This document shows, one piece after another, positions 3,355-41,981 of a stretch of 64,000 nt of DNA. Source of the DNA: Paludibacteraceae bacterium. Its GTDB lineage: Bacteria > Bacillota_I > Bacilli_A > RFN20 > CAG-826. A program made the translations under genes and the position numbers. The DNA is taken from positions 5,926-69,925 of the forward strand of contig CAVFEQ010000003.1 in assembly GCA_963621535.1 (NCBI GenBank), given 5' to 3'. Position 1 is the first letter of the stretch. Each line of letters starts with the position of its first letter. The notes under the pieces were generated by a model that ran no database searches, was not told the DNA's origin, and was given only the letters and a program-made list of their open reading frames with translations.

Positions 3355-3387
3355 GCCGCTAATCCTACCACAAATCCCTTCTAGGGA

Positions 3388-6867: not shown

Positions 6868-6874
6868 GACTTAT

Positions 6875-11601: not shown

Positions 11602-13953
11602 ATGATGAGCAAGAAAGCGAGCAAGCGCGTGCTTCTGGCGGGGCTTTGCGCCGCCGGGGCCCTCGGCGCCGCCCTCGGGGCCGCGCGCTGGGCGGAAACA
11701 GTCCCCGCCTCCGCCGAATCGTCTTTGACCGAGACCGAGATCTCTTTGACCGGCATCCAGCTTAGGGCGCTGAACCTCGACAGCCCACGGTACACCTATC
11801 TGGTCCTGCTCTCGCCTTCCTACGCCGAAGTGGCCGCCAACGAAGAAGTCACGGACGGCTTAGCCAATAGCGACCTCTCCGGGATCAGGCTCTACACCGT
11901 CGACGAGGACGGGGAGCTCGCGGGGAAGACGATCACGCCCAACCACATCGAGACCACAAAATGGACACAGCCCGGCGGCTTCGTCGCCTTCAACGAGTTC
12001 AAGAATGGCCTCGACGGTGAGAAGGTCTACAAGGCGTTCATCCCAAAGGGCACGAAGATCGCCGTCTCATCGACGCAGGCCTTCGTCGTCGACAAGGACT
12101 ACACCTTCTTCAACAAGAACTACGGGAACGCGGAAGCTAAGCTTGAATCCTTTGCTTGGGCCGCCACTCCCTGCGCCCCCTACACAGACGTCTGCCCGGA
12201 GCTCTCCCTGACCGGCGTCCAGATGCGCTGCCTGGACGGCGTCACCACGAATGACTATTACAACTATCTCGTCCTGATCTCCAGTTCGCACGAAGGGATG
12301 ATCAGCGCCGAAAACCTCGAGAACGGGCTGCTCTATAGCGACCTCTCCGGGATCAGGCTCTACACCGTTGGTTCAGACGGCGAGCTCGTGGGGAACGCGA
12401 TCACACCGAACCACCTCGCCCAAAACTGGTGGGGCCAGCCCGGCGCCTTCATCGCCTTCAACGAATACAGCAAAGGGGTGGATGGGTCGAGCGTCTACAA
12501 GATCTACGTGCCGAAGGGCACGAAGCTCTTCCTCGCCGACGCGGAGAAAGGCCAAGTCTACTCCGTCGACCAGGACTACGCCTTCTACAACGTCAATTAT
12601 AGGAATGAGGAGAAAAAGGGCGAATCCTTGGATTGGTGCCCAACGCCCAGCACGCTACCTACTTTCGAGGAGACCGAGATCTCTTTGACCGGCATCCAGC
12701 TTAGGGCGCCAGGCCTCGAAAGCCCATGGTACACCTATCTGGTCCTGCTCTCGCCTTCCTACGCCGAAGTGGCCGCAAACGAAGAAGTCGCAAGCGGCTT
12801 GGCCAATAGCGACCTCTCCGGGATCAGGCTCTACACCGTCGACGAGGACGGTGAGCTCGTGGGGAACGCGATCACGCCCAACCACATCGAGACCACGAAA
12901 TGGGGCCAGCCCGGCGGCTTCATCGGTTTCGACGAGTTCAAGGACGGCCTCGACGGCGAGAAGGTCTACAAGGCGTTCATCCCAAAGGGCACGAAGATCG
13001 CCGTCTCCTCGACGCAGGCCTTCGTCATTGACAGAGACTACACCTTCTACAACACGAACTATGGGAATGAGAAAGCGAAGCTCGAGTCCTTCTCCTGGCA
13101 GGAAACATCTCTGCCCTACGAAGTGGAAAATACAGGCTCCATACACATTAGGGGCGTCACCAACCAATCCGACGGGGATAGCCGTTGGCTAATCGTCTAT
13201 CTTGACGATAAACAATATCCAGAAACCAACAAGGACGGGACTTTCTACGATGCGCTTGGGCTAAGCAATGTTCTCGACAAGATTTACCTCTATTCTTCTA
13301 GCGACATCAGCAAAGAACCCATCAAACTGAGGGATATCTTCACGGGCTTTATCACTCTTGGCCAGTTTAGTTCCAAAGACGCCTTGGGCTTCACCATTAA
13401 AAACGACGAAAGCGTGAATGGGACCAATCTTTACGCGGTGAGCATCGAAGAAGGCTGCGAGATTCCTCTTGAAGAAGACGGGGCCTACACCAAACGCACC
13501 GTTGCTTCCAAAGTCACGTTCTTGAACAACAACTATGGCAAGAGCGGCGATATCCCAGGGGAGACAGGCAAAGACAAACGCACCTACGAAGATTGGTCCA
13601 TTGATTGGACCAAGGGCGCCTTCCTGACTTACACGGTTGTTGGAGCGGATTTAAGCTTCCAAAAAGTTTGCCTGCCCGTTGGCTCGCAAATCGATGCGTC
13701 TTCCTTCGCCTTAGACGGTTACGAAGTGACGATCCAAGACAATCTTGGCTACACCTACTACGAGCAGATCATCGTTCCTGAAAGTGATGCGGTGATCACC
13801 TTGACCTATAGCAAGAAAACGATCGAGCCTGAGGAAACGCCAAAAGAATCCTCTTCTAACTGGGTTGTATGGGCTTTTGTTGGGGTCGGAGCCGCGCTCG
13901 GCGCGGGTCTAGTTGCCGTCTTGGTGGTAGTCATCAAGAAAAAGAAGGCGTAA
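11602..13953 (+). CDS. membrane-anchored cell-surface repeat protein, paralog B
   Basis: 783 aa. Signal peptide nearly identical to paralog A. Three repeats, with an A-type repeat at 11740-12200 and again at 12680-13130 flanking a B-type repeat at 12200-12670. These are followed by a unique ~250-aa lower-GC domain and a C-terminal TM plus KKKK tail. Confidence 0.8.
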   Translation: MMSKKASKRVLLAGLCAAGALGAALGAARWAETVPASAESSLTETEISLTGIQLRALNLDSPRYTYLVLLSPSYAEVAANEEVTDGLANSDLSGIRLYTVDEDGELAGKTITPNHIETTKWTQPGGFVAFNEFKNGLDGEKVYKAFIPKGTKIAVSSTQAFVVDKDYTFFNKNYGNAEAKLESFAWAATPCAPYTDVCPELSLTGVQMRCLDGVTTNDYYNYLVLISSSHEGMISAENLENGLLYSDLSGIRLYTVGSDGELVGNAITPNHLAQNWWGQPGAFIAFNEYSKGVDGSSVYKIYVPKGTKLFLADAEKGQVYSVDQDYAFYNVNYRNEEKKGESLDWCPTPSTLPTFEETEISLTGIQLRAPGLESPWYTYLVLLSPSYAEVAANEEVASGLANSDLSGIRLYTVDEDGELVGNAITPNHIETTKWGQPGGFIGFDEFKDGLDGEKVYKAFIPKGTKIAVSSTQAFVIDRDYTFYNTNYGNEKAKLESFSWQETSLPYEVENTGSIHIRGVTNQSDGDSRWLIVYLDDKQYPETNKDGTFYDALGLSNVLDKIYLYSSSDISKEPIKLRDIFTGFITLGQFSSKDALGFTIKNDESVNGTNLYAVSIEEGCEIPLEEDGAYTKRTVASKVTFLNNNYGKSGDIPGETGKDKRTYEDWSIDWTKGAFLTYTVVGADLSFQKVCLPVGSQIDASSFALDGYEVTIQDNLGYTYYEQIIVPESDAVITLTYSKKTIEPEETPKESSSNWVVWAFVGVGAALGAGLVAVLVVVIKKKKA

Positions 13954-13961
13954 GGAAAGGG

Positions 13962-16469
13962 ATGGTTATGAACATGAAAAACAACAAATTCGGTAAACGC
14001 ATTTACTTTGTCGCCCTTTTGCTCCCCTGCATCTGCGCCTGTTCCAACTCCGGAAGCAAAGGAGGGGACGAGCCGCTTGCTGTCTATGAAGGCAAGGACT
14101 TCCATTTCTCTTCCAGCAAAGGCGATGACCTTGATTGCCTTAACGAACTCAATAAGCGGATGCTCCGCTATGACGAAGACACGCGGGTCGGGGATATCGA
14201 GATTCCTGAAGGGGTCGCGTTCAACATGGGTTGGGAGACTTCAGCCCTTGTTTGGCATAACGCCACCGAGGAAGGGGTCGGCAAAGACTGCTTCTCACCC
14301 ATTTACAGCTTCCTCCAAAATGCCGGGCAAGATGATTACGGCTATGTTTACGACCTAAGCCTCTTCCGCGAATCCAGTTTTCAAGTCAACAACTCAGGGC
14401 TTTGGAACCTCCCTCAGGGATGGCCTTTCCCCTATTGGAAAACCTCCGTCGACAATCTTCTCACCGATTCCGCGGATTACGACAACGTCCATTTCACGAC
14501 CTTCGAATTTGACTCGGCCAACGAACCAACGAGCAAAAACTGGGAATGCGAGAACGGGAAGGCGGAGATTGGCTACGACGGCTATATGAACCTCTCTTTG
14601 GATTCCTCCATCGAAAAAGGGAAATCCTTGACCGTCACGAACACCCGCTTAAGCGACTACCTTCGCCTGTGCGGAGGCATCGATACCACGCACGCCTCCT
14701 TCATTGAGATCGACCTTGATTTTTCTTCCACGAATCTCGACGATTTCTATTTCCTTTGGCAGACAAAAGAGGGGGGCGACACTTGGTATCGCGCCTCAAG
14801 CAAAGAATACATGACGGTCTATAACGATTCTTTCGCTTCTTATGGCGCCCACACCTACTGGCCGATGTACCTTGATGAGAACTGGGCCGGCAAGACCGTG
14901 ACTTCCATCGGAATCGAGTTCGCCCCGAAAGAAGGCGAAGCGTTGAACCTAAGCAACGCGCGCATCAATTACATTCGCCCCGCCTACGATACCCGTCAGC
15001 CACAATTCACATTCCAGTGGCTCGACTCTTTCTATGATTACGTCGTCTACAAAAGGGATCTCGACGCTTTGACGAAGCTCATGCCCAAGGCGCGGAGGGC
15101 GCTTCTTAATCTCACCCACTGCCTCAAAGGCGAATCCGGCCTTTTGAATTTGGACTACCTTTATGGCCATAACGGCATCGGGACCACGATCAACGAGGAT
15201 GGCACGCTGGAGATTCATCCTGGGCAAGGGATCGGCTCAAGCTATTGGGACGTCCTTGCTCTCCCTACCATCAACCTTGAATCCAACGCCTACTTCTATG
15301 GCTGCGTCAAGAAGATGGCCGTCTTGGAGAAAGCCTGCGAAGATTACAACCTGGACATCGAAGGCACTTCCATCAAAAACCGTTCCCTAGGCCAGGAGAA
15401 AGTCGTCTACGACTACACTTCCAGCAAGCTCACCGAGCTCGCCTCGCTCATCAAAGCGACGTTTGAAAAAGACATAAAACCCGCGCAGCAAGCCGATGGA
15501 AGCTGGGTGAATGAGGGAGGGCTTTGGAACCCTGCGACCGGGCGTTTCGCCTTGGGGGTGAGGGAAAGCGATGGCGCTATCCTCGACCATGGCTACATCT
15601 ACTTCAATGAGCAAGCGATCTGCGCAGGCTTAGGGAGTTCCTCCCAGCGCCTTTCGACGATGAATTGGATCGACGGGAAAAGGATCGTTGAAGGAGATGA
15701 TTCCACCGGAGAGGACATCTATTTCTACGAATTCGCCCCCCGCTTCACAACCAAAGACAACAGCGAGCAAATCAATTTCACTTTGGTGAACACTTTCTTT
15801 GAAGAGGGCGGCTATTACGATGAATACGGCAGCCTTTTCTCTAGGCAAGTCCAATGCGGAGGGGCCGTCCTCTGCTGGAGCTATTATGACCTCCTCGCCC
15901 GCGCAGAGGTTCTTGGAAGAGAGAACGCCTTAAGCCGCCTTGAAGGAGTCGCCTCTTGGTATAAGAAAGTCCAAGAGGGAACAAGCGGGACAGGCACGGA
16001 TTTCTTCGCCGACTATTATGAGATCTTAGAAAGCGAGGATTGGAAAGGATATTACGTCCTGCAAAACGCGGAGGGCGGAGGCCCTGGCGCACTTGGCCTA
16101 GACGGGGAATTCCTTGAAAACAGCCTCTTCGCGCGCTCGCTTCCTAGCGCAATCCTCGGGATGGAGGTCGATTCCTTCGATCATCTAAGCTTCTGCAACG
16201 ATTCTTTAGAGGGGCTAAACGCGATCCGCGCGGACAACCTTAAATTCGGAAACGCGACTTATAGCGTGAAAATGGACGCCACCTCCTTTGAAATCTCTAA
16301 CCTCAAAGGAGGCGTGTTCGAGAAAACAAAGCTTTCCCTTCGCTTCAAAAAGCCTGGTGGCAGTTTCACCGTGGAAGTCGATGGGAAAATAAGCACGGAT
16401 TATGCAGTTGAAGGCGACTATATCTCTATGGAGCTGCCTTTAACGAATATCGTGGTAAACGTAAAATAA
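13962..16469 (+). CDS. large predicted lipoprotein of unknown family (possible extracellular glycan-active enzyme)
   Basis: Start chosen at ATG 13962, after AGGAAAGGG. The N-terminus MVMNMKNNKFGKRIYFVALLLPCICACSNSG looks like a lipoprotein signal. No family motif recognised by eye. It is the first gene of the carbohydrate operon. Confidence 0.6.
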   Translation: MVMNMKNNKFGKRIYFVALLLPCICACSNSGSKGGDEPLAVYEGKDFHFSSSKGDDLDCLNELNKRMLRYDEDTRVGDIEIPEGVAFNMGWETSALVWHNATEEGVGKDCFSPIYSFLQNAGQDDYGYVYDLSLFRESSFQVNNSGLWNLPQGWPFPYWKTSVDNLLTDSADYDNVHFTTFEFDSANEPTSKNWECENGKAEIGYDGYMNLSLDSSIEKGKSLTVTNTRLSDYLRLCGGIDTTHASFIEIDLDFSSTNLDDFYFLWQTKEGGDTWYRASSKEYMTVYNDSFASYGAHTYWPMYLDENWAGKTVTSIGIEFAPKEGEALNLSNARINYIRPAYDTRQPQFTFQWLDSFYDYVVYKRDLDALTKLMPKARRALLNLTHCLKGESGLLNLDYLYGHNGIGTTINEDGTLEIHPGQGIGSSYWDVLALPTINLESNAYFYGCVKKMAVLEKACEDYNLDIEGTSIKNRSLGQEKVVYDYTSSKLTELASLIKATFEKDIKPAQQADGSWVNEGGLWNPATGRFALGVRESDGAILDHGYIYFNEQAICAGLGSSSQRLSTMNWIDGKRIVEGDDSTGEDIYFYEFAPRFTTKDNSEQINFTLVNTFFEEGGYYDEYGSLFSRQVQCGGAVLCWSYYDLLARAEVLGRENALSRLEGVASWYKKVQEGTSGTGTDFFADYYEILESEDWKGYYVLQNAEGGGPGALGLDGEFLENSLFARSLPSAILGMEVDSFDHLSFCNDSLEGLNAIRADNLKFGNATYSVKMDATSFEISNLKGGVFEKTKLSLRFKKPGGSFTVEVDGKISTDYAVEGDYISMELPLTNIVVNVK

Positions 16470-16485
16470 GGAAAGGAACATCACC

Positions 16486-17850
16486 ATGAACAAACAAAGC
16501 AAAATCATTCTTCTTAGCTCTACTCTTTTGGCAACGGCCCTTACCGTTGCTAGCTGCGGAGGAGATCAGAATACCGGCGATAGCGCCAACCCGGCGGTGA
16601 ACCTCAAAATCGCCGTCACCAGCGATAAGACCGAGACCAGCATCGCAGAAGCCCTCATCAAGGGCTTCAACCAGACCGAAGGCAACAAGAACGTCAAAAT
16701 CTCCGTCGTGAAAATCACCCAGGGCTATGACAGCTACATCCAGAAGAACTGGGGCAAGTCCACGATGGCCGATCTCATCTCCGTTTACGACTACAACGCC
16801 GAATACTGGACTTCAATGAACCTCTTCAAGCCCCTTTCCACCTACATGGAAAGAGATGGCGTTAACGAGGAAGATTACGTCTCCTCCATGTTCAACTTAG
16901 GGAAATCCGGGACCGATGACACTTATTATTGGCTCCCTCGCGATTACAACAAAGTCGTCGTTTGCTACAACACCGAGATCTTTGAGGCGGCCGGGATCAG
17001 CAAGCCTAGCGACAACTGGACGATGGAGGATTTCGAGCAGACCTGCAAGACGCTTTTGGAGAAGAGCGAAGAAATCAAGAAGGTCACCGGCAAGTACGAC
17101 TTCTGGCCGGCGGAGATGAACCTCAAATGGACCGCGGTTTATTATCCCTACATCAAATCCTATGGCGGCGGCTTCCTTGCGGACGATGGGACTTGCTTCA
17201 AAAACCCGGACATCGTGAAATCCTCCCTTCTCAAACTTTTGAAATACGCAGACCCGACCGACAGCGCGAACTATCCCGGTCTTGGCTATAGCAACCCCAT
17301 CGGGCAAGCCGACGATCAGGCCTGCTTCGTCAATAAAAAAGCGGCGATGATTTTCACGGTGCGCCCGAACATCCAGAGCTTTGCAAAGAATCTGAATAAC
17401 AACATCGACTTCGTTTCCTTGCCCTCAATCACCGATAACGACGGAAAGACATCGTATATCGGCTCGGGCTGCTCAGGGTATACCATCACAACCAACTGCA
17501 GCGACGATAAAGTCGAGGCCGCTTGGCGTTTCTTGAAATACATCGTTTCGAAGGAAGGCCAGGAAGTTCTTGGCAAAACCGGCAGCGGCATCCCCGTGCT
17601 TTCCTCTCTTCTAAACGATTCCTCTTCCGCATGGAAAAACTTCATCTCGAAGGATCTCAATCACGACGCCTTCACCAAGTTCCCTGAGCGCGACCTCTCC
17701 ATGAATTACGTTCATGGCTTCAAAGCCAACAAGCAGCTCACCATTTATAAGGAATTCAAAGACAGTCTGATCTTCTCCATGTACAACAGCGAAGACCGCG
17801 ACGAGGAATTCGCTGCCTTCAAAGCCAAAATTGACGCGCTGATTGCCTAA
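16486..17850 (+). CDS. ABC transporter extracellular solute-binding lipoprotein (CUT1 sugar family)
   Basis: 454 aa. Lipobox LTVASCGG. Length and composition typical of a sugar-binding protein. Followed by MalF/MalG-like permeases. Confidence 0.85.
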   Translation: MNKQSKIILLSSTLLATALTVASCGGDQNTGDSANPAVNLKIAVTSDKTETSIAEALIKGFNQTEGNKNVKISVVKITQGYDSYIQKNWGKSTMADLISVYDYNAEYWTSMNLFKPLSTYMERDGVNEEDYVSSMFNLGKSGTDDTYYWLPRDYNKVVVCYNTEIFEAAGISKPSDNWTMEDFEQTCKTLLEKSEEIKKVTGKYDFWPAEMNLKWTAVYYPYIKSYGGGFLADDGTCFKNPDIVKSSLLKLLKYADPTDSANYPGLGYSNPIGQADDQACFVNKKAAMIFTVRPNIQSFAKNLNNNIDFVSLPSITDNDGKTSYIGSGCSGYTITTNCSDDKVEAAWRFLKYIVSKEGQEVLGKTGSGIPVLSSLLNDSSSAWKNFISKDLNHDAFTKFPERDLSMNYVHGFKANKQLTIYKEFKDSLIFSMYNSEDRDEEFAAFKAKIDALIA

Positions 17851-17903
17851 AAAGCCTCACCTTCGAAGGCATTCTTCGAAGGTTTTGCCGTGGAAGGAGG
17901 GTT

Positions 17904-18815
17904 ATGAAAGCCTCTACGAAGAAAATAATAAAAAACAACGTTACAGGATACTTGCTTCTGCTGCCGTTTTTAGTTGGGCTAATCGGCTTCACGGCCTATC
18001 CCTTGCTTTTGGCGTTATGGCAGAGCTTTTTCAAAGACTATAGCCCCGTGACGGGATATGACTTCGCCGACTTCGGATTCGAGAATTACATCAACGCATT
18101 TACGAGCCAAAGCGTGCAGCGTTCCATTTGTCTCACTCTTGTCTATGCGGCGATTACGATCCCCTTTGGGCTCGTCGTCTCCTTCCTCCTCGCCTATTTG
18201 CTCAGTTTGCCAATCAAAGGCACTAAAATATTCCGCGTTTTGGTCTACTTGCCAGCGTTGATCCCTAGCATCGTCTCCGCTTCTATCTACAAGTACATGT
18301 TCGGTCCTGACGAATTCGGGCTGATCAATCAGCTTCTTATTGGCCTAGGAAGAGAGCCGAGCAAGCTTTTGGAATCGCCTGAGCAAAGCATCGCGGTGCT
18401 GAGCTTATTCTTAACCGGCATCTTCGGCTACGGCTGCAGCTCGCCGATGTGGATCGCAGGGTTCAACAGCGTTCCAACTGACGTCTACGAAGCGGCGTTC
18501 GTCGATGGATCTTCCAAACCGAGAACCTTTTTCAAAATCACCATCCCCCTCATGGGAAGATTCATTTTCTTCCAACTGCTTGGCTCCCTCATCGGGACTT
18601 TGCAGATCGGGGAATCCGTCCTCATGCTTTCAAGCAGAGGAGGCTTCGGAGAGAACCTCAACTTCTATGGCTTGATGATCTATAACCAAACCACAGACGG
18701 CATCGGGAACTATGGCTTTGCAAGCGCTTTGTCCTATCTCCTCTTCATTGTGATCGCCTTGCTTTCCATCGCGACGTTCCAAGCGAATAAAAAAACCTAC
18801 ATGGAGGGCATTTGA
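17904..18815 (+). CDS. ABC sugar transporter permease (MalF/UgpA-like)
   Basis: 303 aa. Six TMs and an EAA-like loop region (EAAFVDGSS). Confidence 0.85.
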   Translation: MKASTKKIIKNNVTGYLLLLPFLVGLIGFTAYPLLLALWQSFFKDYSPVTGYDFADFGFENYINAFTSQSVQRSICLTLVYAAITIPFGLVVSFLLAYLLSLPIKGTKIFRVLVYLPALIPSIVSASIYKYMFGPDEFGLINQLLIGLGREPSKLLESPEQSIAVLSLFLTGIFGYGCSSPMWIAGFNSVPTDVYEAAFVDGSSKPRTFFKITIPLMGRFIFFQLLGSLIGTLQIGESVLMLSSRGGFGENLNFYGLMIYNQTTDGIGNYGFASALSYLLFIVIALLSIATFQANKKTYMEGI

Positions 18816-18816
18816 G

Positions 18817-19665
18817 ATGGAGCATTTCAAAATGAAATTTTGGGAGAAGGCCATCATTTACGTTATTTTGACCTTCTTCTCCCTCTTGGCTATCGTCCCC
18901 ACCTTTGTTCTGGTTTCTAGAAGTTTTTTCTCCCTTGATGAGATCACTAGCCTTGGGGCGGGGGTCTTCCCTCATAGTCCCACTCTCGACGCCTATGTGA
19001 CGGCCTTTACCGACGAGGGTTTCTTGACGTCTTTAAAAAACACTCTTCTTACCTGTCTATGCGCGGTCATCGGGGTGCCTTTAACCGCCTTCATGGCCGC
19101 TTACGCCTTCACGCGCATCAAATTCTTCGGCCGGAGATTTTGGTTCCTCTTGGGGCTTGGCACCATCATGATCCCAAGCATCTTGCTCTTGATTCCCGTC
19201 TATTCGATCTTCGTGGATATGGGATGGACCAACACCCTGCTGCCCCTTACCGTGACTTATTTCTTCGGCGGAGGCATCATGAACATCTTCCTCATCATGC
19301 AGTTCATACGCGGATTGCCAAAAGACATGTATGAGGCCGCCGAAATCGACGGCGCAGGGACGTTGCGTCAGATGTTCCAGCTTACCTTGCCTTTGGTGAA
19401 GCCTGTGGTTGCTTATGCTGCCGTCACCGCCTTTATCGGCGCCTGGAATGACGTCATGCGCCCATTGATGTACAACGATTTATCCGAATATTACACGGTC
19501 AACCAATACATCTACATCACTTATCTGCAGCAAACCGCGACGATGGATGCGCTGCCAAACGTCCAAATGGCCCTTGGGGTCATCCTCATGATTCCGATGC
19601 TCATCATTTTCATCGTCTTCCAAAAGCAACTGATTGAGGGCATCCGCCTCTCGGGAGAGAAATAA
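18817..19665 (+). CDS. ABC sugar transporter permease (MalG/UgpE-like)
   Basis: 282 aa. EAA motif (YEAAEIDGAGTLRQMFQLTLPL). 2-nt gap to the previous gene. Confidence 0.85.
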   Translation: MEHFKMKFWEKAIIYVILTFFSLLAIVPTFVLVSRSFFSLDEITSLGAGVFPHSPTLDAYVTAFTDEGFLTSLKNTLLTCLCAVIGVPLTAFMAAYAFTRIKFFGRRFWFLLGLGTIMIPSILLLIPVYSIFVDMGWTNTLLPLTVTYFFGGGIMNIFLIMQFIRGLPKDMYEAAEIDGAGTLRQMFQLTLPLVKPVVAYAAVTAFIGAWNDVMRPLMYNDLSEYYTVNQYIYITYLQQTATMDALPNVQMALGVILMIPMLIIFIVFQKQLIEGIRLSGEK

Positions 19666-19667
19666 CC

Positions 19668-20951
19668 ATGAAAAAGAAAATCGTCGTTGTTGGCTGCGGG
19701 GACCGCGCCACCGTATATTGTCAAGAAGGGGTGAATAACCTTAAAGGAATGGAAGTTGTCGCCTGCGTCGATCCGAATGAGGAAAGGCTAAGGTTCATGC
19801 ACGAACATTTCGCTGTGCCTTCTTCGATGTGTTTCCATAGCATCGAAGAAGTGCTGAAGCTAGGAAAAATCGGGGATGCGGTGATTAATGGCACGATGGA
19901 TACCTTGCACCTGCAGACCGCACTGCCTTTCTTAAAGCAAGGCTACCACATGCTTTTGGAGAAGCCTCTTACCAACAACAAAGAGGATCTTCTTTTGCTT
20001 AAAAAGGTGGCTGAAGAAAATAACGTCAAACTGATGACCTGCCACGTCCTCCGTTACGCGCCCTTCTATCGCAAAATCAAGGAAATGATCCTCAATGGAG
20101 AAATCGGCAGCATCCAAAGCATCGCCACTTCCGAACGCGTCGGCGCCTATCATTCCTCGGTGAGCTATCTCCGAGGCAAGTGGAGCAAGCAAAGCGAATG
20201 CGGCTCCTCCTTGCTTTTAGCAAAATGCTGCCACGATCTCGATTTGCTTTGCTGGCTCAATAACAGCACCAAGCCCGTTGAGGTCTATAGCAACGGAGGG
20301 AGAACCTATTTCACAAAGGAAAACGCCCCAAAGGGCAGCGGAAACCGCTGCCTTGTGGACTGCCCAAAGGAAATCAGAGACAAGTGCATCTACGAAGCGG
20401 AAGCGATGTATATCAAAAACACCGTTTTGCCTTGGTATCCTTGGCAGTGCACAGGGAAAAATTACGAGGACGTCACCGAGGAAGAGAAATACGAATCCTT
20501 GCGGACGAACAATCCGCACGGACGTTGCATCTTCAAATGCGACGGCGATTTGCTTGACCACCAAAACGTCGTGGTGAAATTCGCAAACGGAAGCACCGCG
20601 AGCCATCTTCTGGTTTTAGGCGCGATGAAGCCGACGCGGACGATCTTCATCACCGGGACGGAAGGCGAAATCGAAGGCGATCCTAGCGGGGAACTCATTC
20701 TCCGCAAATTCGACAAGAATAGCGATTTCTTCACCGAGACTAAGGTGAGCTTCGAAGACAAACAAGGCGAGACCGGCGGGCATTATGGGGGCGACAGGGG
20801 CCTTATCGCCGACTTCCTGAACGTTCTTTCAGGAGTTGTCCCGTCAATCTCTTGCACCGCGATTGAAGATTCCATCAATGGGCATTGCCTGGTCTATGGG
20901 GCCGACCAATCCATAGCCAGCCTCAAGCCTGAGAACATCGAAACCGAATGA
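19668..20951 (+). CDS. Gfo/Idh/MocA family NAD(P)-dependent oxidoreductase
   Basis: 427 aa. N-terminal Rossmann KIVVVGCGDRA and a central EKP motif (LLEKPLTNN). Cys-rich insert CLVDCPKEIRDKCIYEAE. Overlaps the next gene by 4 nt. Confidence 0.8.
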   Translation: MKKKIVVVGCGDRATVYCQEGVNNLKGMEVVACVDPNEERLRFMHEHFAVPSSMCFHSIEEVLKLGKIGDAVINGTMDTLHLQTALPFLKQGYHMLLEKPLTNNKEDLLLLKKVAEENNVKLMTCHVLRYAPFYRKIKEMILNGEIGSIQSIATSERVGAYHSSVSYLRGKWSKQSECGSSLLLAKCCHDLDLLCWLNNSTKPVEVYSNGGRTYFTKENAPKGSGNRCLVDCPKEIRDKCIYEAEAMYIKNTVLPWYPWQCTGKNYEDVTEEEKYESLRTNNPHGRCIFKCDGDLLDHQNVVVKFANGSTASHLLVLGAMKPTRTIFITGTEGEIEGDPSGELILRKFDKNSDFFTETKVSFEDKQGETGGHYGGDRGLIADFLNVLSGVVPSISCTAIEDSINGHCLVYGADQSIASLKPENIETE

Positions 20952-23140
20952 GTAAAATGAGCAAAGGAAGAATCACGATTCCCACCGATTCCACTTACGT
21001 CGAGGGGACGAAAAAATATATCGAGCTTTGGGGCGCCGACGCGGTGAGAGATTGTGACGGGGTCAGTTTGCCTAAAGACGTGAAGCAATTTGGCACAGAC
21101 GTCTATAAGGCTTATTTCATCGTAAGGGAAGACCACGATTATGCCTTGAAACATAAGGAATATTGGCAGAACGTCGCTTTGATGAGCCAAAGGAAGATTG
21201 CTTATGGAAACGAGCTCGTGATCGATTTGCTGGAGAACACGTTCAAAGACGCCCTCGAGCCCAACGAGACGGATTACCGCAAATGGTGGCAGGTCATCGA
21301 CCGAACGACGGGCCGCATTCACGAAGACTACGACTACCTAGGCTCAGGGAAAGTCCGCATCAATAGCTGCCTCCCCTACCACGAATACACGGTGAACTTC
21401 TTTGCCAGAAACACCTGGGACCCCGTGCAAATCTATAACTATCACGTGAACAATTGGACTTGCCCGAAAGACATCGATCTTGATCCGGTATATCCAGAAG
21501 CGCTTCAGCATATGCTTGAGAGAATGGAACTATGGCTGAAGGCGAATCCCGATGTAACGGTGGTCCGTTTCACTACTTTTTTCTATAACTTCTTCATTGT
21601 GAACGTCACCGGTACCAAGCAACGCATTTGGGACTGGCACTGCTATGCGATGAGCGCCTCCCCCGCGATGTTCGAATTGTTCAAAAAAGAAAAAGGCGTT
21701 GAAATGAGCCTGGAGGATCTAATCGGCGAGGGCTACTATTCCAACCGCTTCGTTATCCCCGGCAAGAAGCAGTTGGCTTACGAAGACTTCGTGGAAGAAA
21801 AATGCGCCGCTTGGGCAAAGCGATTCGTCGATCTGTGCCATAAATACAGCAAGAAAGCCTTGATGTTCGATGGGGATCATCGCGTTGGCGTGGAACCTTA
21901 TTCTCCTTATTTCCCCTCGATTGGGCTAGACGGGGTGGTCGGGGCTCCAAGCGGAGCCATCTACATCAGCCAAGTGGCGAATATCAAAGGAGTGAAATTC
22001 ACCGAAGGTAGGCTGAATCCTTATTTCTTCCCGAATGAATGCCCTAGCGACGAGAAAGGGAAGCAAATCCTTCTTTCTTGCTGGAACAACATGCGGAGAG
22101 GGCTGCTGAAGAAATCCATTGATCGCATTGGTTTTGGAGGATACCTCAAGCAAATCGAGAACTACCCTTTGTTGACTGCGGCAATTAAAGACGTATGCGA
22201 CGAATTCAGGGGCATCGCGGATGCTCTTGGCCATTCCTCTTGCTCTAGCAAAGGGAGGATCGCCGTGCTCAGTTACAGGGGCAGGCGCGATTCTTGGATG
22301 ATGAATGGGACGTTCGTCGACGATGCGAGGCAAGGGGGCTGCTACTACCATTCCCTTTTCGACGCTTTGGCGGTTTTGCCTTTTGAGGTCGAGTTCATTT
22401 CCTTTGAAGAAGCTTCCAAAACGGATTTAAGCACATACGACTGCCTTCTTTCTTGCGGGGTGCCGAATACGAGCTTCGCCGGAGGCAAGGCATGGGAGAA
22501 CCCTGAGCTTGTTTCCAATATCAGGAGATACGTGCACGAAGGGGGCGCCTTCTTTGGGGTCGGGGAGCCGACCGCCAGCCAACATCAGGGAAGGTTTTTC
22601 CAGTTAAGCGACGTGCTTGGCGTAGAGAAGGAATGCGAGTTCACCCATTTTGAGAAACGCAACCCATTCAAAACGTTAGAAAATCACTGGATTAAGGAGG
22701 ACGTGGATATGTCTTTGGTTGGTTATAACCGTTTCCAAAGAAACGTTTACCCCCTCACCGCGACGGTTTTGGCCAACGAATTCGATTGGGAATATCCAGA
22801 AGGCCAGCAAAATGCCGCGAACGTGCATTTTGCGATCAATGAGTATGGAAAGGGGAGAAGCGTCTATCTTTCTGGAATCACCTGTAACGACGAGACCATT
22901 CGTCTCTTATATCGCGCTTTCCTTTGGGCGATGAAGAAAGAAGACGAGACGAAGCGGCTTTATGCGTTAGCGAGCTCCGTGGATGTTTTCTATTATGAAG
23001 AGAAGCGGATGTACGCTTTGTACAACGATTCCGAAAAAGAAGTCGCGACAAGTTACTATGACCTGCAAGGAAATTTGAAGAACGTTTTCTTGAAAGGAAA
23101 AGAGATTGTCTGGCTGGACGAAAAGGGGCTGAAATTATGA
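20948..23140 (+). CDS. GH112 beta-galactoside phosphorylase (lacto-N-biose/galacto-N-biose or Gal-beta1,4-L-Rha phosphorylase family)
   Basis: 730 aa. Blocks recalled from Bifidobacterium LnpA are conserved: ELWGADAVRDCDG, WQVIDRTTGRI, HEYTVNFFA, WDPVQIYNY, VVRFTTFFYNF, GRFFQLSDVLGVEKE. Confidence 0.8.
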   Translation: MSKMSKGRITIPTDSTYVEGTKKYIELWGADAVRDCDGVSLPKDVKQFGTDVYKAYFIVREDHDYALKHKEYWQNVALMSQRKIAYGNELVIDLLENTFKDALEPNETDYRKWWQVIDRTTGRIHEDYDYLGSGKVRINSCLPYHEYTVNFFARNTWDPVQIYNYHVNNWTCPKDIDLDPVYPEALQHMLERMELWLKANPDVTVVRFTTFFYNFFIVNVTGTKQRIWDWHCYAMSASPAMFELFKKEKGVEMSLEDLIGEGYYSNRFVIPGKKQLAYEDFVEEKCAAWAKRFVDLCHKYSKKALMFDGDHRVGVEPYSPYFPSIGLDGVVGAPSGAIYISQVANIKGVKFTEGRLNPYFFPNECPSDEKGKQILLSCWNNMRRGLLKKSIDRIGFGGYLKQIENYPLLTAAIKDVCDEFRGIADALGHSSCSSKGRIAVLSYRGRRDSWMMNGTFVDDARQGGCYYHSLFDALAVLPFEVEFISFEEASKTDLSTYDCLLSCGVPNTSFAGGKAWENPELVSNIRRYVHEGGAFFGVGEPTASQHQGRFFQLSDVLGVEKECEFTHFEKRNPFKTLENHWIKEDVDMSLVGYNRFQRNVYPLTATVLANEFDWEYPEGQQNAANVHFAINEYGKGRSVYLSGITCNDETIRLLYRAFLWAMKKEDETKRLYALASSVDVFYYEEKRMYALYNDSEKEVATSYYDLQGNLKNVFLKGKEIVWLDEKGLKL

Positions 23141-24744
23141 GAAAGTGCAATTACACAAAGGTCATTGATAGTCATTTGGTGAAGGACGTGGATAGATTAT
23201 CCGCGAATTTTACCTCCGGAGAGCATATTTTCGTCGCCCCGGTTTGCTCCATCCAAAAGGGCGGTTATTTGATCCTAGATTTCGGCAAGGAGATTTGCGG
23301 AAGGGTCCATGTGGTCTTCGGCTTCTCGGAAAATTCAAAAATCAGAATCAGGACCGGGGAGAGCGTCGATGAAGCCTGCGCAGAGCTCAATGAGAAGAAC
23401 GCCGGGAATCACCATTCGTTGAGGGATGCTGTTTATCCCGTGGTCTTTTGGAGCGATTTCTCTACAAGCGAGACCGGCTTCCGTTTCGTGCGGATCGATG
23501 TTCTAGGCGAAGAGAAGGTGGATATAACCTCGATCTACGCCGAAGAAAGTGAGAACGGGCTTACCAAAAGGGGGTCGTTCCTTTCAAGCGATAAAAGGTT
23601 GAACGACATCTATGAGGTGGCTTCTAGGACCATTGAACTTTGCGTTCGTCCCGAAGCGATTTGGGACGGCGTGAAAAGGGACCGCGTGGCCTGGATTGGC
23701 GATTTCTATCCCGAACTGTTAAGCGCATATCTCATCTATGGGAACATCCCTCAGATGGAGAGCATGCTCGATTACGTTTCTTCCTTCGAAGGAAAATGGG
23801 TCAATAGCATCCCCGCCTATTCCGCTTGGTGGATCGTTTGCTTTGAGAAGTATTACCAGCTAAGTGGAAATGAAGCCTATCTGCAAAAGATGCTTCATTA
23901 TTTAAAAGACATCGTAAAGGAATTCTCCAAGATTATTTTCCCTGGCGGGAAGGTGTCTTTCGCCAATTCCACGCTTGGCTTCTTTGATGGGAACGAGCTT
24001 TTCCTTGATTGGCCAACCCACACGACCCCTGACGCGGAAATTGGCTGGCGTTACCTTCTTCTTTACGCGATGAAACGGGCGAGCGTTCTTCTTAGCTCCT
24101 TAGGCGAGGACGCGTCTTTAGCGGATAACATCATCAAGAACCTTAATGAATATTCCTATCCAGCGTCTTCCTTTAAGCAAGTGACCGCTTTAGGAGTGCT
24201 TGCTGGGAAAATCGACCCCAAGGAGGCCGCGCCTTTATTGAAAGAGGGCGGCGCGAAGGGCATGACCTGCTTCCTTAGCTTCGCTATTGTTGAAGCGCTA
24301 AGCTTGGCCAATGAAGGCGACGAGGCGCTTAATCTTATTAAAGAATACTATGGGGCGATGCTGGATTTGGGCGCGACAACATTTTGGGAAGATTTCGATG
24401 TCGATTGGTTAAATGACCATCCAGATGGCGTTTCCGCGCTACCGAACGCTAAGACCAAAAACATCCATGCGGATTATGGCAAATTTTGTTATTTAGGGCT
24501 GCGCCATAGCCTGTGCCACGGCTGGTCGACGGGCTTCCTTGATTTTTACGCATCCTATCTTCTTGGGGTCGTTGCTATAGAACCTGGCTACAAATCGATT
24601 AAAGTCGAACCGCATTTATGCGGACTGAGTTTCGTTGAGGGCACCATACCGACCCCTTATGGTGACATATGGGTCCATCACGAGAATAAAAAAGGCCAGA
24701 TTGAGACCTGCTTGAAGTGCCCGGAAGGCGTTGTGTTAAAATGA
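23137..24744 (+). CDS. six-hairpin glycoside hydrolase, alpha-L-rhamnosidase-like (GH78 catalytic and C-terminal domains only)
   Basis: 535 aa. DGVKRDRVAWIGD and SLCHGWSTGF motifs resemble the GH78 (alpha/alpha)6 catalytic domain. The usual N-terminal beta-sandwich domains are absent. 4-nt overlap on both sides. Confidence 0.55.
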   Translation: MRKCNYTKVIDSHLVKDVDRLSANFTSGEHIFVAPVCSIQKGGYLILDFGKEICGRVHVVFGFSENSKIRIRTGESVDEACAELNEKNAGNHHSLRDAVYPVVFWSDFSTSETGFRFVRIDVLGEEKVDITSIYAEESENGLTKRGSFLSSDKRLNDIYEVASRTIELCVRPEAIWDGVKRDRVAWIGDFYPELLSAYLIYGNIPQMESMLDYVSSFEGKWVNSIPAYSAWWIVCFEKYYQLSGNEAYLQKMLHYLKDIVKEFSKIIFPGGKVSFANSTLGFFDGNELFLDWPTHTTPDAEIGWRYLLLYAMKRASVLLSSLGEDASLADNIIKNLNEYSYPASSFKQVTALGVLAGKIDPKEAAPLLKEGGAKGMTCFLSFAIVEALSLANEGDEALNLIKEYYGAMLDLGATTFWEDFDVDWLNDHPDGVSALPNAKTKNIHADYGKFCYLGLRHSLCHGWSTGFLDFYASYLLGVVAIEPGYKSIKVEPHLCGLSFVEGTIPTPYGDIWVHHENKKGQIETCLKCPEGVVLK

Positions 24745-25658
24745 GAAAATTCATCGTCGACACCGACATCGGAGCCGATTGCGACGACATGGTCGCCCTT
24801 GCTTATTTATTGGGGAAAAGTTCAAAAAAGGAATGCGAGCTGCTTGCGATTACTTTAAGCACCGGGCGCGAGTTCGCCCCTAATTGCGCGCTTTCCCTTT
24901 TGAAAGAACGGGGGTTCACCTCGATTCCTGTTGGACAATATAAAGGGAATCCCTTGCCTTGTGACCGTTTTGACCATTACGCGAAGGCGTTATCAAAAAA
25001 GAATCCCATCAAAGTCGAAAACGCAACGACGCTCATGCGCTCCGTTTTATCTAGCAACGAGAAATGCGACATCATTTGCATCGGACCGCTCTGCAACATC
25101 GCCTCTTTTTTGAAAAGTCAGGCGGATGACATCTCTTCCTTGGACGGAATCAGCTTAGCAAAAGAAAAAATCGGGACCCTTTACCTTATGGGCGGCGCGT
25201 TCGATTTCGGGTCAGGGATTCCATTCCCGGAATGGAACATCGAGCAAGACATCGATAGCGCCCGTTTCGTTTTTGCCTCCTTTCCTCGCCCCATCAAAGC
25301 CATCCCTTTTGAAACGGGTGCAATCGTCAAAACGAGCATTGATTCTACCGAAGGAATTGTCCGCTCATCCATGGAAGCCTTCTTCGAAAGCATTCAAAAC
25401 CCTTCTTTGAAGAGCCGACCAAGTTGGGATCCTCTCACAGCGATGGTTTCACTTAACGAGGAAGGATTTCGTTTTTCCTCTACTGGAAAAATCTCAATTT
25501 CCCCTAAAGGCATCAGTGAGTTCCATGCTTGCGAAGAAGGGAACGCCTCTTATCTTCTGCTGAGCAACGATTTCCCAAAAATCGAAGCAAAACTGAACGC
25601 TTTTTTAAGCGAAATGCACACCTACAAAGGAGATACCGAAAATGAGAAAGATTTATGA
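24741..25658 (+). CDS. inosine-uridine-preferring nucleoside hydrolase family protein
   Basis: The start overlaps the upstream stop (ATGA). The N-terminal fingerprint FIVDTDIGADCDDMVAL matches the DxDxxxDD motif. Confidence 0.8.
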   Translation: MRKFIVDTDIGADCDDMVALAYLLGKSSKKECELLAITLSTGREFAPNCALSLLKERGFTSIPVGQYKGNPLPCDRFDHYAKALSKKNPIKVENATTLMRSVLSSNEKCDIICIGPLCNIASFLKSQADDISSLDGISLAKEKIGTLYLMGGAFDFGSGIPFPEWNIEQDIDSARFVFASFPRPIKAIPFETGAIVKTSIDSTEGIVRSSMEAFFESIQNPSLKSRPSWDPLTAMVSLNEEGFRFSSTGKISISPKGISEFHACEEGNASYLLLSNDFPKIEAKLNAFLSEMHTYKGDTENEKDL

Positions 25659-26514
25659 ACTCGGCTCCATCAACATGGATGTTTCCATTTGCGCCCCCAC
25701 CTTCCCCCAAAAAGGCGAGACGGTTAATGGGAATAATCTTAAGGTGAGCCTCGGCGGGAAAGGGGCGAACCAAGCGATTGCGATCACCAAAGCTGGCTAT
25801 CAGGTTTCTTTTTTAGCGAAACTCGGCGACGATGGTTATGGCAAAGAGGCCTTAGAAACAATTAAGGGATTCGGCTTGAATATCACCGATATTCAGATAG
25901 ACGAAAGCCACCCCACCGGCGTGGCTGTTATTTTGCTTAGCCAAGGAGACAACCGAATCATCATCGAGCATGGGGCGAATTACGCTCTTGGAGAAAAAGA
26001 TGTTGATGAATTTTTGCGACAAGCGAAAGCAAACGATATTTTCTTCACCCAATACGAAAATAGACCAGACATCGTTGCTTATGCCTTGAAGAAAGCCAAA
26101 AGCAAGGGGATGTTCACCGTTTGGAACCCCTCGCCAATCGGAGACTATTCTCCCGATCTTCTTTCCTGTGTTGACTTGCTTGTTGTGAATGAGAACGAAG
26201 CAAAGGCGATTTTATCCAAGGAAAAGGCGACTTCTTTAAAGGAATTGCCAGTAGGAGACATTTTGCTTACGCTCGGTGAGCAAGGTTCAAAATATTATCG
26301 TAAAGATGAGATGATTGAGATTCCGGCGAAGCGAGTGGAAGCAATCGACACCACCGGTGCCGGCGACACCTTTTTAGGCTATTTTTTAGCGTATTACGCC
26401 AGAGAGAAGCCATTAGAAACTTGTCTTCGCATGGCCACAAAGGCAAGCGCAATCGCCTGCACTAGACGCGGAGCCTCATCTTCGATTCCTTTGGATTACG
26501 AAGTGAGGAAGTGA
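25642..26514 (+). CDS. rbsK: ribokinase
   Basis: 290 aa. Both ribokinase signatures are present: VSLGGKGANQAIA (N-terminal) and DTTGAGDTF (C-terminal). 17-nt overlap with the nucleoside hydrolase gene. Confidence 0.85.
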   Translation: MRKIYELGSINMDVSICAPTFPQKGETVNGNNLKVSLGGKGANQAIAITKAGYQVSFLAKLGDDGYGKEALETIKGFGLNITDIQIDESHPTGVAVILLSQGDNRIIIEHGANYALGEKDVDEFLRQAKANDIFFTQYENRPDIVAYALKKAKSKGMFTVWNPSPIGDYSPDLLSCVDLLVVNENEAKAILSKEKATSLKELPVGDILLTLGEQGSKYYRKDEMIEIPAKRVEAIDTTGAGDTFLGYFLAYYAREKPLETCLRMATKASAIACTRRGASSSIPLDYEVRK

Positions 26515-26715: not shown

Positions 26716-26738
26716 GCGGCCAAAAAGGCCGCTTTTTA
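26716..26738. terminator. bidirectional hairpin GCGGCC-AAAAA-GGCCGC followed by TTTTT
   Basis: Seen between the convergent rbsK (+) and FGGY kinase (-) genes. A T-run follows on the plus strand. Confidence 0.6.
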
Positions 26739-28295: not shown

Positions 28296-28565
28296 GGTTT
28301 TTCCTTTTTTCGCAACAAATGATAACACCGCAGAAAACCAGGCGCATTCCGTCAAAATACAAAAAGTCCTAAATTTGCACAAGTTTTTGTCAATTAACGA
28401 AAAGGTTCATGTTTATTTTAAGGAAAACGAGAATTGAAAGATTTGTCGTGAAACAAAACCAAACGCTTGTCTCGACGTTTTATTTTCAAAGAAAAGACCA
28501 TTGGAAGGTCTTTTTGTTGCCCAGCATTTCGTTCAAATCTAAAATAGGCCAGAAAAGAGCGAAAA

Positions 28566-29546
28566 ATGATTATTTCCAGAGCGCCATTCCGAGTTTCCTT
28601 CTGCGGTGGAGGGAGCGATATACCCTCTTTCTATGAGAAGTACACGGGGTGCGTATTGTCGACCACGATACGCAAATACGTCTATATCACGATAAACAAG
28701 GCCTTTAACAAAGACTCCATAACGTTGAAGTACTCCCAAACGGAAGTCGTGAACGACCCTTCCCAAATTCAGCACCGAATTTTCAAACAAGTTCTGAGCG
28801 ATTTTGGCACGAAAGGCGTCGAAATCACCTCAATGGCGGACATTCCTGCCGGAACCGGCCTTGGCTCATCCAGCTCATTCACGGTCGCCCTTATAAAAGC
28901 TCTCTACGCTTTTAATTCCAACTCCGTTTCGGCCTATAAAGTGGCGAAAGAAGCGTGTGATGTAGAGATTAATCAATTGGGAAACCCCATTGGGAAGCAA
29001 GATCAATTCGCCGCGGCCTTCGGCGGTATTCGTTACTATGAGTTCGAGCCCGACGGATTCGTGAAAGTCGAGCCGATCATCATGAGCAAGTCAGCGCGAA
29101 ATCACCTAGAAGCCTCGATGATGCTCTTTTACACTGGGGCGTTGCATGATGCGAACAAAATCCTTGGCGAGGAGAGCAAAAACCTAGCCTCCGCCAACGA
29201 AAAAATAAACGCAACGAAAACCCTTTGCGACATGACGAAAGAACTGAAAATCAGTCTTGAGGAAAATGACGTAGACGCCATAGGCCCATGCCTAAAAAGA
29301 GGTTGGGAAATCAAGAAAAGCTTGGCTTCAGGCATCACTAGTCCCCTCATCGATCATTGCTATGAACTCGGGATTAAGGCCGGCGCAACAGGAGGCAAAC
29401 TATTAGGTGCCGGCGGAGGCGGATTTTTGCTTTTCTATGTCCCTGATTCTTCAAAAAGGGCGCAAATCCGGGCTGCTTTGCACGATTTAAAGGAAATGCC
29501 GTTCGAATTAGACCAATCGGGCGTAAGCATTATTTATACAGAATGA
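28566..29546 (+). CDS. hddA: D-glycero-alpha-D-manno-heptose 7-phosphate kinase (GHMP kinase)
   Basis: 326 aa. GHMP motif PAGTGLGSSSS. Glycine-rich C-terminal GATGGKLLGAGGGGF. First gene of the heptose trio. Confidence 0.75.
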   Translation: MIISRAPFRVSFCGGGSDIPSFYEKYTGCVLSTTIRKYVYITINKAFNKDSITLKYSQTEVVNDPSQIQHRIFKQVLSDFGTKGVEITSMADIPAGTGLGSSSSFTVALIKALYAFNSNSVSAYKVAKEACDVEINQLGNPIGKQDQFAAAFGGIRYYEFEPDGFVKVEPIIMSKSARNHLEASMMLFYTGALHDANKILGEESKNLASANEKINATKTLCDMTKELKISLEENDVDAIGPCLKRGWEIKKSLASGITSPLIDHCYELGIKAGATGGKLLGAGGGGFLLFYVPDSSKRAQIRAALHDLKEMPFELDQSGVSIIYTE

Positions 29547-31458: not shown

Positions 31459-31621
31459 GGACGCGAAATCGTTAGAAACCAAGCGGAAAACGATTCGTTT
31501 CGCTTATTTTCTTTTACTTTGCCGCTTTTTGGTTATTTTTGGTTCCTCTAAGGCGTTGGAAGTGCTACCATTCCACCGCTAGGGCTTTATAAAAGCCCTT
31601 AATTGTCTTTAGGAGGACAAC

Positions 31622-41762: not shown

Positions 41763-41779
41763 GCGGGCACAGTAAAAGC

Positions 41780-41917: not shown

Positions 41918-41951
41918 GATAATTTTCTCCTTTTCAGCGGTAGCGGTGTCT

Positions 41952-41980: not shown

Positions 41981-41981
41981 T

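Follow-up and report, generated by a model that had tools for sequence, protein, structure and literature searches.

Organisation of the gene cluster

The DNA analysed here, called the window throughout, is a 64,000-nt stretch of contig CAVFEQ010000003.1 from a Paludibacteraceae bacterium (assembly GCA_963621535.1, forward-strand positions 5,926 to 69,925), and all coordinates below count from its first nucleotide. Between nt 13962 and 26514 it contains nine genes, all on the plus strand. They encode, in order, a lipoprotein, the solute-binding protein (SBP) and two permeases of an ATP-binding cassette (ABC) importer, a Gfo/Idh/MocA oxidoreductase, a GH112 phosphorylase, a GH78-like rhamnosidase, an IUNH-like protein with a divergent nucleoside hydrolase (NH) fold, and a PfkB-family ribokinase (Table 1). 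An original prediction, made by reading the sequence, had proposed this set and its order; both are borne out by the open reading frames (ORFs) and their junctions, and Pfam confirmed each of the family calls. The system that these genes may form, and the part that the IUNH-like protein may play in it, are the subject of this report.

The genes are tightly coupled, as had been predicted, with gaps of 1 to 53 nt instead of the 2 to 53 nt first given. The successive junctions measure +16, +53, +1, +2, -4, -4, -4 and -17 nt; the three 4-nt overlaps all read ATGA, and the 17-nt overlap joins the IUNH-like and PfkB genes. The longest ORF of the lipoprotein gene opens at nt 13869, but the ATG at nt 13962 has a ribosome-binding site (GGAAAGGG) on its 5' side and a lipobox-like LLPCICAC on its 3' side. 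For the IUNH-like gene, the gene calls of public collections start at ATG 24741, giving 305 aa, and the longer ORF from GTG 24717 was not adopted. The 53-nt gap between the SBP and permease genes holds a 10-bp palindromic hairpin (nt 17859-17883, ACCTTCGAAG...CTTCGAAGGT), a possible mRNA-stabilising or attenuating element.

At the upstream end, the original prediction was right for the nine genes and missed the gene at nt 11602, which encodes a 783-aa surface repeat protein. This gene ends 8 nt before the lipoprotein start. Because of this short gap, and because a strong terminator (nt 11184-11202) lies upstream of the 783-aa gene and none lies between it and the lipoprotein gene, the unit probably comprises ten genes, of which the surface protein gene is the first. 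The gene for a 458-aa paralogue, further upstream, is probably a transcription unit of its own. Downstream, the unit is closed by the hairpin GCGGCC-AAAAA-GGCCGC, followed by TTTTTATT. No promoter is claimed, because a promoter scan found sites no more numerous than in shuffled sequence. The FGGY kinase gene is indeed convergent and directly downstream, as predicted. Its membership in the system was considered and dropped; it is absent from every other locus compared. A chance arrangement, or a pseudogene, is ruled out by the intact reading frames and by the conservation across genomes described below. The IUNH gene in particular, for which decay had been raised as a possibility, is intact, conserved and tied to glycosidases in many genomes.

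Table 1. Genes and other elements of the cluster and its flanks, by position in the window
Feature	Position (nt)	Strand	Basis or remarks
AraC-family regulator	8786-9625	-	Pfam HTH_18, HTH_AraC, AraC_binding; candidate regulator, divergent from the cluster
Surface repeat protein, 458 aa	9788-11164	+	Signal peptide, C-terminal membrane anchor; paralogue of the 783-aa protein
Surface repeat protein, 783 aa	11602-13953	+	Signal peptide, C-terminal anchor; candidate glycan-binding protein
Lipoprotein, 835 aa	13962-16469	+	Predicted extracellular (alpha/alpha)6 enzyme, glycoside-hydrolase-like fold
SBP (lipoprotein) of carbohydrate ABC importer	16486-17850	+	Pfam SBP_bac_1, SBP_bac_8
ABC permease 1	17904-18815	+	Pfam BPD_transp_1
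ABC permease 2	18817-19665	+	Pfam BPD_transp_1
Gfo/Idh/MocA NAD(P) oxidoreductase, 427 aa, cytoplasmic	19668-20951	+	Pfam
GH112 beta-galactoside phosphorylase	20948-23140	+	Pfam, TIGR02336, PDB 2zus
Small GH78-like alpha-L-rhamnosidase, 535 aa, cytoplasmic	23137-24744	+	Pfam, PDB 3cih
IUNH-like protein (divergent NH fold), 305 aa, cytoplasmic	24741-25658	+	PF01156
PfkB-family ribokinase	25642-26514	+	E. coli RbsK match
GC-rich hairpin and T-run, terminator shared with the convergent FGGY gene	26716-26732, T-run to 26740		Closes the unit
FGGY kinase	26736-28382	-	Pfam; convergent with the operon

The IUNH-like protein and its relatives

The IUNH-like protein matched PF01156 with 87.4 bits (cutoff 34.2). 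Against the NCBIfam models RihA, RihB, RihC and UriH it scored 38.7, 36.6, 31.5 and 16.9 bits, where the cutoffs lie between 382 and 459; it is an equivalog of none of them, the scores for the Rih models being about one tenth of each cutoff. Its best PDB match by sequence had an E-value of 8e-6. The structural model (predicted local distance difference test, pLDDT, 94) has an NH fold, and the best 50 Foldseek matches were all nucleoside or riboside hydrolases, with template modelling (TM) scores of 0.65-0.75 and about 20% identity.

In an alignment of 22 relatives, the invariant positions include D7, T8, D9, D13, D15, D16, E164, N166, R226, S228, W229 and D230, and the clade is marked by the motifs DTDxGxDxDD, EWN and RPSWDP. 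By their pattern, these residues appear to correspond to the calcium- and ribosyl-binding residues of the classical enzymes. The NH fold and the Asp, Glu and Asn residues of that site are common to RihA/B/C, IU-NH and IAG-NH, whereas identity to these enzymes is only about 20%, two motifs are changed, and the context is one of glycan catabolism instead of salvage. The first change is in the canonical DXDXXXDD, which here reads DTDIGADCDD, with a two-residue insertion relative to RihB; its acidic residues are present and invariant in the clade. The second concerns the leaving-group His, in place of which R-P-S-W-D-P has Trp229 before the invariant D230, an equivalence of motif pattern in a C-terminal half left unaligned by phmmer. 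Because the calcium- and ribosyl-binding residues are kept, while the motif has an insertion and a Trp stands for the His, the sugar site looks intact and the aglycone side looks altered. We propose that the protein is a ribofuranoside hydrolase acting on an imported glycan fragment.

Conservation was examined by a scan of GTDB with one genome per species, which gave 341 IUNH-like relatives; neighbourhoods were taken from 80 of the 341 loci. L-numbers denote loci used in the comparisons. The exact proteins of the operon occur on one other contig only, and among GTDB genomes a 95% identical copy was found in one gut metagenome-assembled genome (MAG). The order lipoprotein, SBP, two permeases, Gfo/Idh/MocA, GH112, GH78-like, IUNH-like is kept in L002-L007 and L015, at protein identities of 48-81% (47-81% over all the organisms that share the arrangement), and the IUNH-like protein is 52-57% identical where whole clusters of the same order recur. 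In L094/L095 the genes are rearranged (GH112, GH78-like, IUNH-like, AraC, surface repeat protein, lipoprotein, SBP), with GH112 65% identical, and L018 has the full set minus GH112. The GH78-like gene adjoins the IUNH-like gene, on either side, in 11 of 13 distinct loci (those with an IUNH-like identity of at least 45%, plus L094/L095, to which the GH112 protein led). The stable core of the system is therefore GH78-like plus IUNH-like, usually accompanied by GH112, Gfo/Idh/MocA and the PfkB kinase. The cluster recurs in several uncultured gut Clostridia, where GH112 can be counted with this pair as a conserved triad.

The clade itself is large. A profile search of 1.84 billion cluster representatives returned 1,676 at E <= 1e-30, and at 50% identity the clade has some 1,700 clusters at the least. 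Among the best 146 members, 128 have the extended Asp motif and 87 the motif [ST]WD[PSA]. The hosts of the 80 loci are mostly uncultured gut or rumen Clostridia MAGs. In these loci, AraC genes flank the IUNH-like gene in 18 cases, sugar ABC permeases are neighbours in 15-17 and PfkB kinases in 11; GH78, GH123, GH35, GH2, GH36-like proteins, SGNH esterases and Gfo/Idh/MocA are further recurrent neighbours. Since the neighbours are heterogeneous over the 80 loci, our strong claim is kept to orthologues of at least 45% identity.

Some clade members are secreted proteins in which an NH domain, single or double, is joined to Laminin_G_3, Malectin, Ig-like, Big_9 or CarboxypepD_reg domains, the largest being 1730 aa long; tandem NH-NH proteins of some 650 aa also occur. 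P0218, P0221, P0346 and P0215, from the profile search, represent these secreted multi-domain forms. In P0271 the NH domain shares one chain with a sugar-type ABC ATPase that has a TOBE domain. Combinations with lectin and malectin domains are a usual mark of carbohydrate enzymes that act on polymers and are difficult to square with nucleoside salvage.

Such salvage is nonetheless the most ordinary explanation of part of the operon: the IUNH-like protein and the ribokinase would form a standard nucleoside-salvage module, merely co-transcribed with an unrelated galactoside/rhamnoside operon. PF01156 and a PfkB ribokinase are a classical pair, and the calcium/ribosyl-site residues are kept. Even the Trp in front of the calcium-binding Asp has a precedent, as it occurs in purine-specific IAG nucleoside hydrolases, and some distant members of the clade have non-carbohydrate neighbours. 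However, the IUNH-like gene overlaps the GH78-like gene by 4 nt. In many genomes the two remain neighbours, in either order, at 45-57% identity, and they do so in clusters that lack the ribokinase too. The low scores against every characterised Rih equivalog model and the lack of a nucleoside transporter also speak against salvage, under which the secreted lectin and malectin fusions would make little sense. We consider this explanation unlikely. The proposed action on a non-nucleoside riboside, which the original prediction had already suggested, would fit the genomic context, the altered residue on the aglycone side and the lectin fusions.

Partner enzymes, lipoprotein and importer

The PfkB protein matched E. 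coli RbsK (1gqt/1rkd) with an E-value of 1e-45, and the ribose-binding and catalytic residues of RbsK, N14, D16, G41-G42-K43, N46, E143 and D255, are all identical.

The GH78-like protein has both expected domains, an (alpha/alpha)6 catalytic domain and a C-terminal beta domain (PF17389, 34.6 bits, cutoff 24.5; PF17390, 32.2 bits, cutoff 22.1), and matched BT1001 (3cih, E 1.8e-30), RhaB (2okx) and KoRha (4xhc) in the PDB. Its motifs DGVKRDRVAWIGD and TFWE hold the four acidic positions of RhaB as D, D, D and E. For RhaB these acids are presumably D567, E572, D579 and E841, a list that we take to be that of Cui et al. 2007. The second acid is changed from Glu to Asp, a change also present in BT1001 and KoRha, and the motifs DGxKRDRxxWxGD and TFWE are common to all three proteins. 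With KoRha it further shares a compact architecture of about 540 aa. The match to BT1001 amounts to only about 109 bits, and BT1001 is periplasmic whereas the GH78-like protein is cytoplasmic. BT1001, the closest solved relative, cleaves Rha-alpha1,3-Api, the rhamnose-apiose disaccharide of rhamnogalacturonan II (RG-II) (PMC7939467; bioRxiv 10.64898/2026.03.13.711244).

This activity raises the possibility that D-apiose, or some other furanose having a 2,3-cis-diol, is set free instead of ribose, and that the target is a plant apioside such as the Rha-alpha1,3'-Api of RG-II. The NH-fold protein would then be a beta-apiofuranosidase, and the PfkB and Gfo/Idh/MocA proteins would process the apiose. 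Apiofuranose shares the cis-diol that the calcium site of the NH fold binds, and the PfkB score, given below, is under the ribokinase cutoff, both of which would agree with this possibility. The PfkB protein, however, keeps all the ribose contacts of E. coli RbsK, including those around O5, none of the many other RG-II enzymes is present among the genes scanned, and no apiosidase with an NH fold is known. Moreover, in chain B of RG-II the galactose is attached to aceric acid, which is not a known GH112 acceptor. A preprint is consistent with this structure of chain B (bioRxiv 10.64898/2026.03.13.711244). An apioside as the target seems to us quite unlikely, a little more so than simple nucleoside salvage.

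The GH112 protein has the complete three-domain architecture of its family (PF09508, 470 bits; PF17385, 189; PF17386, 28.6; all above the cutoffs). It scored 618.7 against TIGR02336 (cutoff 560.3) and matched the Bifidobacterium longum enzyme BlGLNBP (PDB 2zus) with an E-value of 7e-126. Aligned to 3wfz/2zus, it is identical to the B. longum enzyme at D313, R32, N166, R210 and R358. We take D313 to be the catalytic proton donor and the arginines to be those of the phosphate and galactose sites, following what is presumably the residue list of Hidaka et al. 2009. P161, V162, Y362 and F364 are kept and S336 is replaced by Ala, in a comparison made to BlGLNBP with no galactosyl-rhamnose phosphorylase (GalRhaP) among the references. 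Read against B. longum as the sole reference, and with acceptor positions that we assume to be the relevant ones, the mapped residues lean towards the type acting on galactosyl-N-acetylhexosamine. There were 2,668 homologues, and the names of the best 120 of the 2,668 were uninformative on the subtype. A literature search found no account of the residues governing acceptor specificity in GH112.

A GH112 phosphorylase also stands beside an ABC importer for oligosaccharides in known loci, namely the galacto-N-biose (GNB) and lacto-N-biose (LNB) cluster of B. longum (lnpABCD with the LNB/GNB binding protein GL-BP) and the GH112/GH136 loci of Roseburia. One might therefore see in the operon a variant of the LNB/GNB pathway for host mucin or milk glycans, with GH112 at its centre and the remaining genes as minor accessories. 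The TIGR02336 score above cutoff, the active-site residues shared with the B. longum enzyme (P161, V162, N166, Y362 and F364 among them) and the presence, in distant IUNH-like loci, of GH123 and GH35, which act on GalNAc/Gal glycoconjugates, are in its favour. Yet NahK, GalT and GalE are absent among the genes between nt 8786 and 34267, and there is no GH136, GH20 or GH101 to release the disaccharide. The SBP has no similarity to the LNB/GNB binding protein: its PDB matches were weak and were generic oligosaccharide binders, with no GL-BP among those at E <= 0.01. The partners of GH112 are also different here, being the GH78-like and NH-fold proteins, the ribokinase and Gfo/Idh/MocA. Finally, GH112 is dispensable in L018, where the remainder of the cluster is kept, and two rhamnosidase-like proteins would be left unexplained. 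We regard such a variant as very unlikely. Another likeness is to the Gal-beta1,4-L-Rha phosphorylases of Lachnoclostridium phytofermentans (Cphy_1920) and Opitutus terrae (PMC8950772), where GH112 likewise stands in a rhamnose context. It is a likeness of context, and no link of that system to ribose genes was found in the literature.

Gfo/Idh/MocA is the best-conserved protein of the cluster: its identity across loci is 75-79%, while that of the other three enzymes is 47-73%. Its sequence is of a generic kind, best matched in the PDB by an anhydrofructose reductase and by oxidoreductases without a specific name. Among its weak hits in the PDB and NCBIfam are glycoside 3-dehydrogenases and other long Gfo/Idh/MocA entries. 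One of the latter is 8qc2, which we take to be an NAD-dependent sulfoquinovosidase, although the entry bears no such name. Its conservation and recurrence hint at a central role in the system. The GH109 identity suggested by the original prediction found no support: no special similarity was seen, and none of 45 PDB matches (E <= 1e-3) was named alpha-N-acetylgalactosaminidase. Distant homologues of Gfo/Idh/MocA (32-33% identity) were observed in three remote IUNH-like loci, L050, L056 and L091.

Sequence searches with the lipoprotein gave no match in Pfam, NCBIfam or the PDB; 64 homologues were found. Its AlphaFold2 model (pLDDT 86) combines a beta-sandwich with an (alpha/alpha)6 barrel, and the nearest structures are GH78 enzymes, at 10-15% identity only. 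The lipoprotein is predicted to be an extracellular glycoside hydrolase of an undescribed family. A substrate containing rhamnose, proposed before on family grounds, appears supported by this model and by the catalytic acids that the GH78-like protein keeps. As for the importer, both permeases are 55-81% identical to their counterparts in related loci.

The two surface repeat proteins share 75% identity over their 345 N-terminal aa and contain repeats of about 165 aa, two or four per protein, without any family match in Pfam, NCBIfam or the PDB. A homologue of 892 aa (E 2e-56) stands beside the lipoprotein homologue in L094, and another accompanies it in L018. These may be glycan-binding proteins of an undescribed type. 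The 462-aa proteins adjoining the AraC gene in L005 were tested as further homologues and came out unrelated.

The extracellular proteins bear on a last explanation, in which the substrate would be a small glycoside, for example a rhamnoside of a plant flavonoid or saponin, or a natural product consisting of a glycosylated riboside. In its favour, the catabolic enzymes are all cytoplasmic, and flavonoid rhamnosides are frequent substrates of small GH78 enzymes from gut bacteria (PMC11901676). Nevertheless, an extracellular polymer is indicated by the conserved 835-aa lipoprotein with its glycoside-hydrolase-like fold, by the large surface repeat proteins and by the clade members that carry lectin domains. 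This is the least likely of the explanations considered.

Proposed pathway and genomic surroundings

What the analysis shows is the order and coupling of the genes, their conservation in other genomes, the families, the retained catalytic and ribose-site residues and the predicted folds. The scheme that we infer from this for the operon, including each enzymatic step, the order of its steps and the substrate, is as follows. Outside the cell, the surface repeat protein and the (alpha/alpha)6 lipoprotein would bind and cut a polymer, and the SBP with its two permeases would, judging by family, import the resulting oligosaccharide. In the cytoplasm, the GH78-like enzyme would take off alpha-L-rhamnose, the NH-fold enzyme would hydrolyse a beta-D-ribofuranosyl linkage to give ribose, and GH112 would phosphorolyse a beta-galactoside to give galactose-1-phosphate. 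Gfo/Idh/MocA might oxidise a sugar or else a glycoside resistant to the other enzymes. The ribokinase would convert ribose to ribose-5-phosphate, which enters central metabolism. The chances that the cluster is indeed an ABC-importer operon, carried by an uncultured gut member of the Clostridia, for the import and stepwise breakdown of a glycan of rhamnose, galactose and ribofuranose appear to us evenly balanced.

The glycan is probably of microbial origin, and its most plausible class would be a bacterial surface polysaccharide containing the three sugars. Examples from gut Enterobacteriaceae that combine two of them are Klebsiella O4, a repeat of ribofuranose and galactose, and Klebsiella O7, with three rhamnoses and one ribofuranose per repeat (PMC11231755).

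Several observations weigh against this scheme. Taken at face value, nucleoside hydrolase plus ribokinase is a nucleoside-salvage pair. The PfkB protein reached 261 bits against the ribokinase model TIGR02152, below the cutoff of 299.65, yet this was by far its best family. Its gene, present in L005-L007, is absent in L002-L004, L015 and L094, otherwise complete clusters included. Distant clade members (less than 40% identity) often lie beside housekeeping or unrelated genes, so the glycan link is not universal. No genes for the metabolism of galactose-1-phosphate, rhamnose or N-acetylhexosamine were found in the 64-kb window, and what Gfo/Idh/MocA does in the scheme is a guess.

Among known systems, the nearest analogue is rus, a group of polysaccharide utilisation loci of Bacteroidetes (Glowacki et al., bioRxiv 10.1101/574913); by analogy the cluster would work like rus, of which it is not a member. 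Both have one or more ribokinases, variable glycoside hydrolases and an IUNH-family hydrolase of weak or atypical nucleosidase character, a character judged here from sequence. In Bacteroides, RusNH cleaves p-nitrophenyl-beta-D-ribofuranoside and is weak on nucleosides (bioRxiv 10.1101/574913). Both systems are proposed to free ribose from covalently bound sources that are as yet unidentified. In contrast, rus is built on the Gram-negative SusC/SusD, RusR and RusT, whereas the cluster lacks these and has an ABC importer of Gram-positive type, lipoproteins and an AraC regulator; no rhamnosidase is mentioned in the rus preprint (bioRxiv 10.1101/574913). The likeness of the IUNH-like protein to RusNH is that of a shared Pfam family, from which the extended DTDxGxDxDD and the Trp for His set it apart.

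A full-text literature search found no described ribofuranosidase, and nothing linking a nucleoside hydrolase with a rhamnosidase and ribose. The operon matches no characterised system that we found, and we class it as a Gram-positive glycan and ribose utilisation locus. Beyond the operon, we tentatively suggest, seeing a substantial chance of it though a somewhat smaller one than for the import and breakdown scheme, that the IUNH-like clade is a large unrecognised family of NH-fold glycoside hydrolases. What they remove from complex glycans would be O-linked beta-D-ribofuranosyl residues or a closely similar cis-diol furanose, apiose for example. GH112, the GH78-like enzyme and the NH-fold enzyme would together form an undescribed route by which gut Firmicutes use bacterial polysaccharides containing ribofuranose (O-antigens, capsules).

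Ribofuranose is common in bacterial O-antigens and capsules, and no described glycosidase was found that removes it from a glycan. If the suggestion is true, the carbohydrate-active enzymes would gain a new catalytic fold, and well over a thousand gut-metagenome genes annotated as 'nucleoside hydrolase' would acquire a function. It would also suggest that gut Clostridia feed on the surface glycans of other bacteria, with a Gram-positive counterpart of the Bacteroides rus systems, whose natural substrates still await identification. The conserved lipoprotein is in addition a candidate founder of a further glycoside hydrolase family.

The surroundings of the operon were also inspected. The AraC gene, outside the unit here, lies inside the cluster in L094. 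The chromosomal origin region occupies nt 39665-51189 (minus strand: yidC and mnmE; plus strand: dnaA, dnaN, recF, gyrB and gyrA), which places the glycan operon about 16 kb from dnaA. A pth-mfd-tilS block lies upstream of the cluster (nt 1827-7435), whereas in L002/L003 it lies downstream of the IUNH gene (12183-18287); the same chromosomal neighbourhood is therefore kept, with the cluster in the opposite orientation.

Beyond the FGGY kinase gene, three translationally coupled genes (nt 28566-31458) encode a GHMP kinase, a fusion of a nucleotidyltransferase with a HAD phosphatase, and a SIS-domain isomerase. From its families, this set looks like a pathway to a nucleotide-activated heptose for a surface glycan. 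A pyruvate phosphate dikinase gene follows (nt 31622-34267). Opposite to it, on the minus strand, a 608-aa ORF (nt 31565-33391) lies in a high-GC stretch with strongly negative GC skew; it is almost certainly spurious. Further away, a gene for an AAA_14/DUF4143 ATPase (nt 53846-55219) is located in a stretch of low GC content (GC 0.41). A gene of the same AAA_14/DUF4143 family is found directly 3' of the related cluster in L005 (12310-13554) and in L006.

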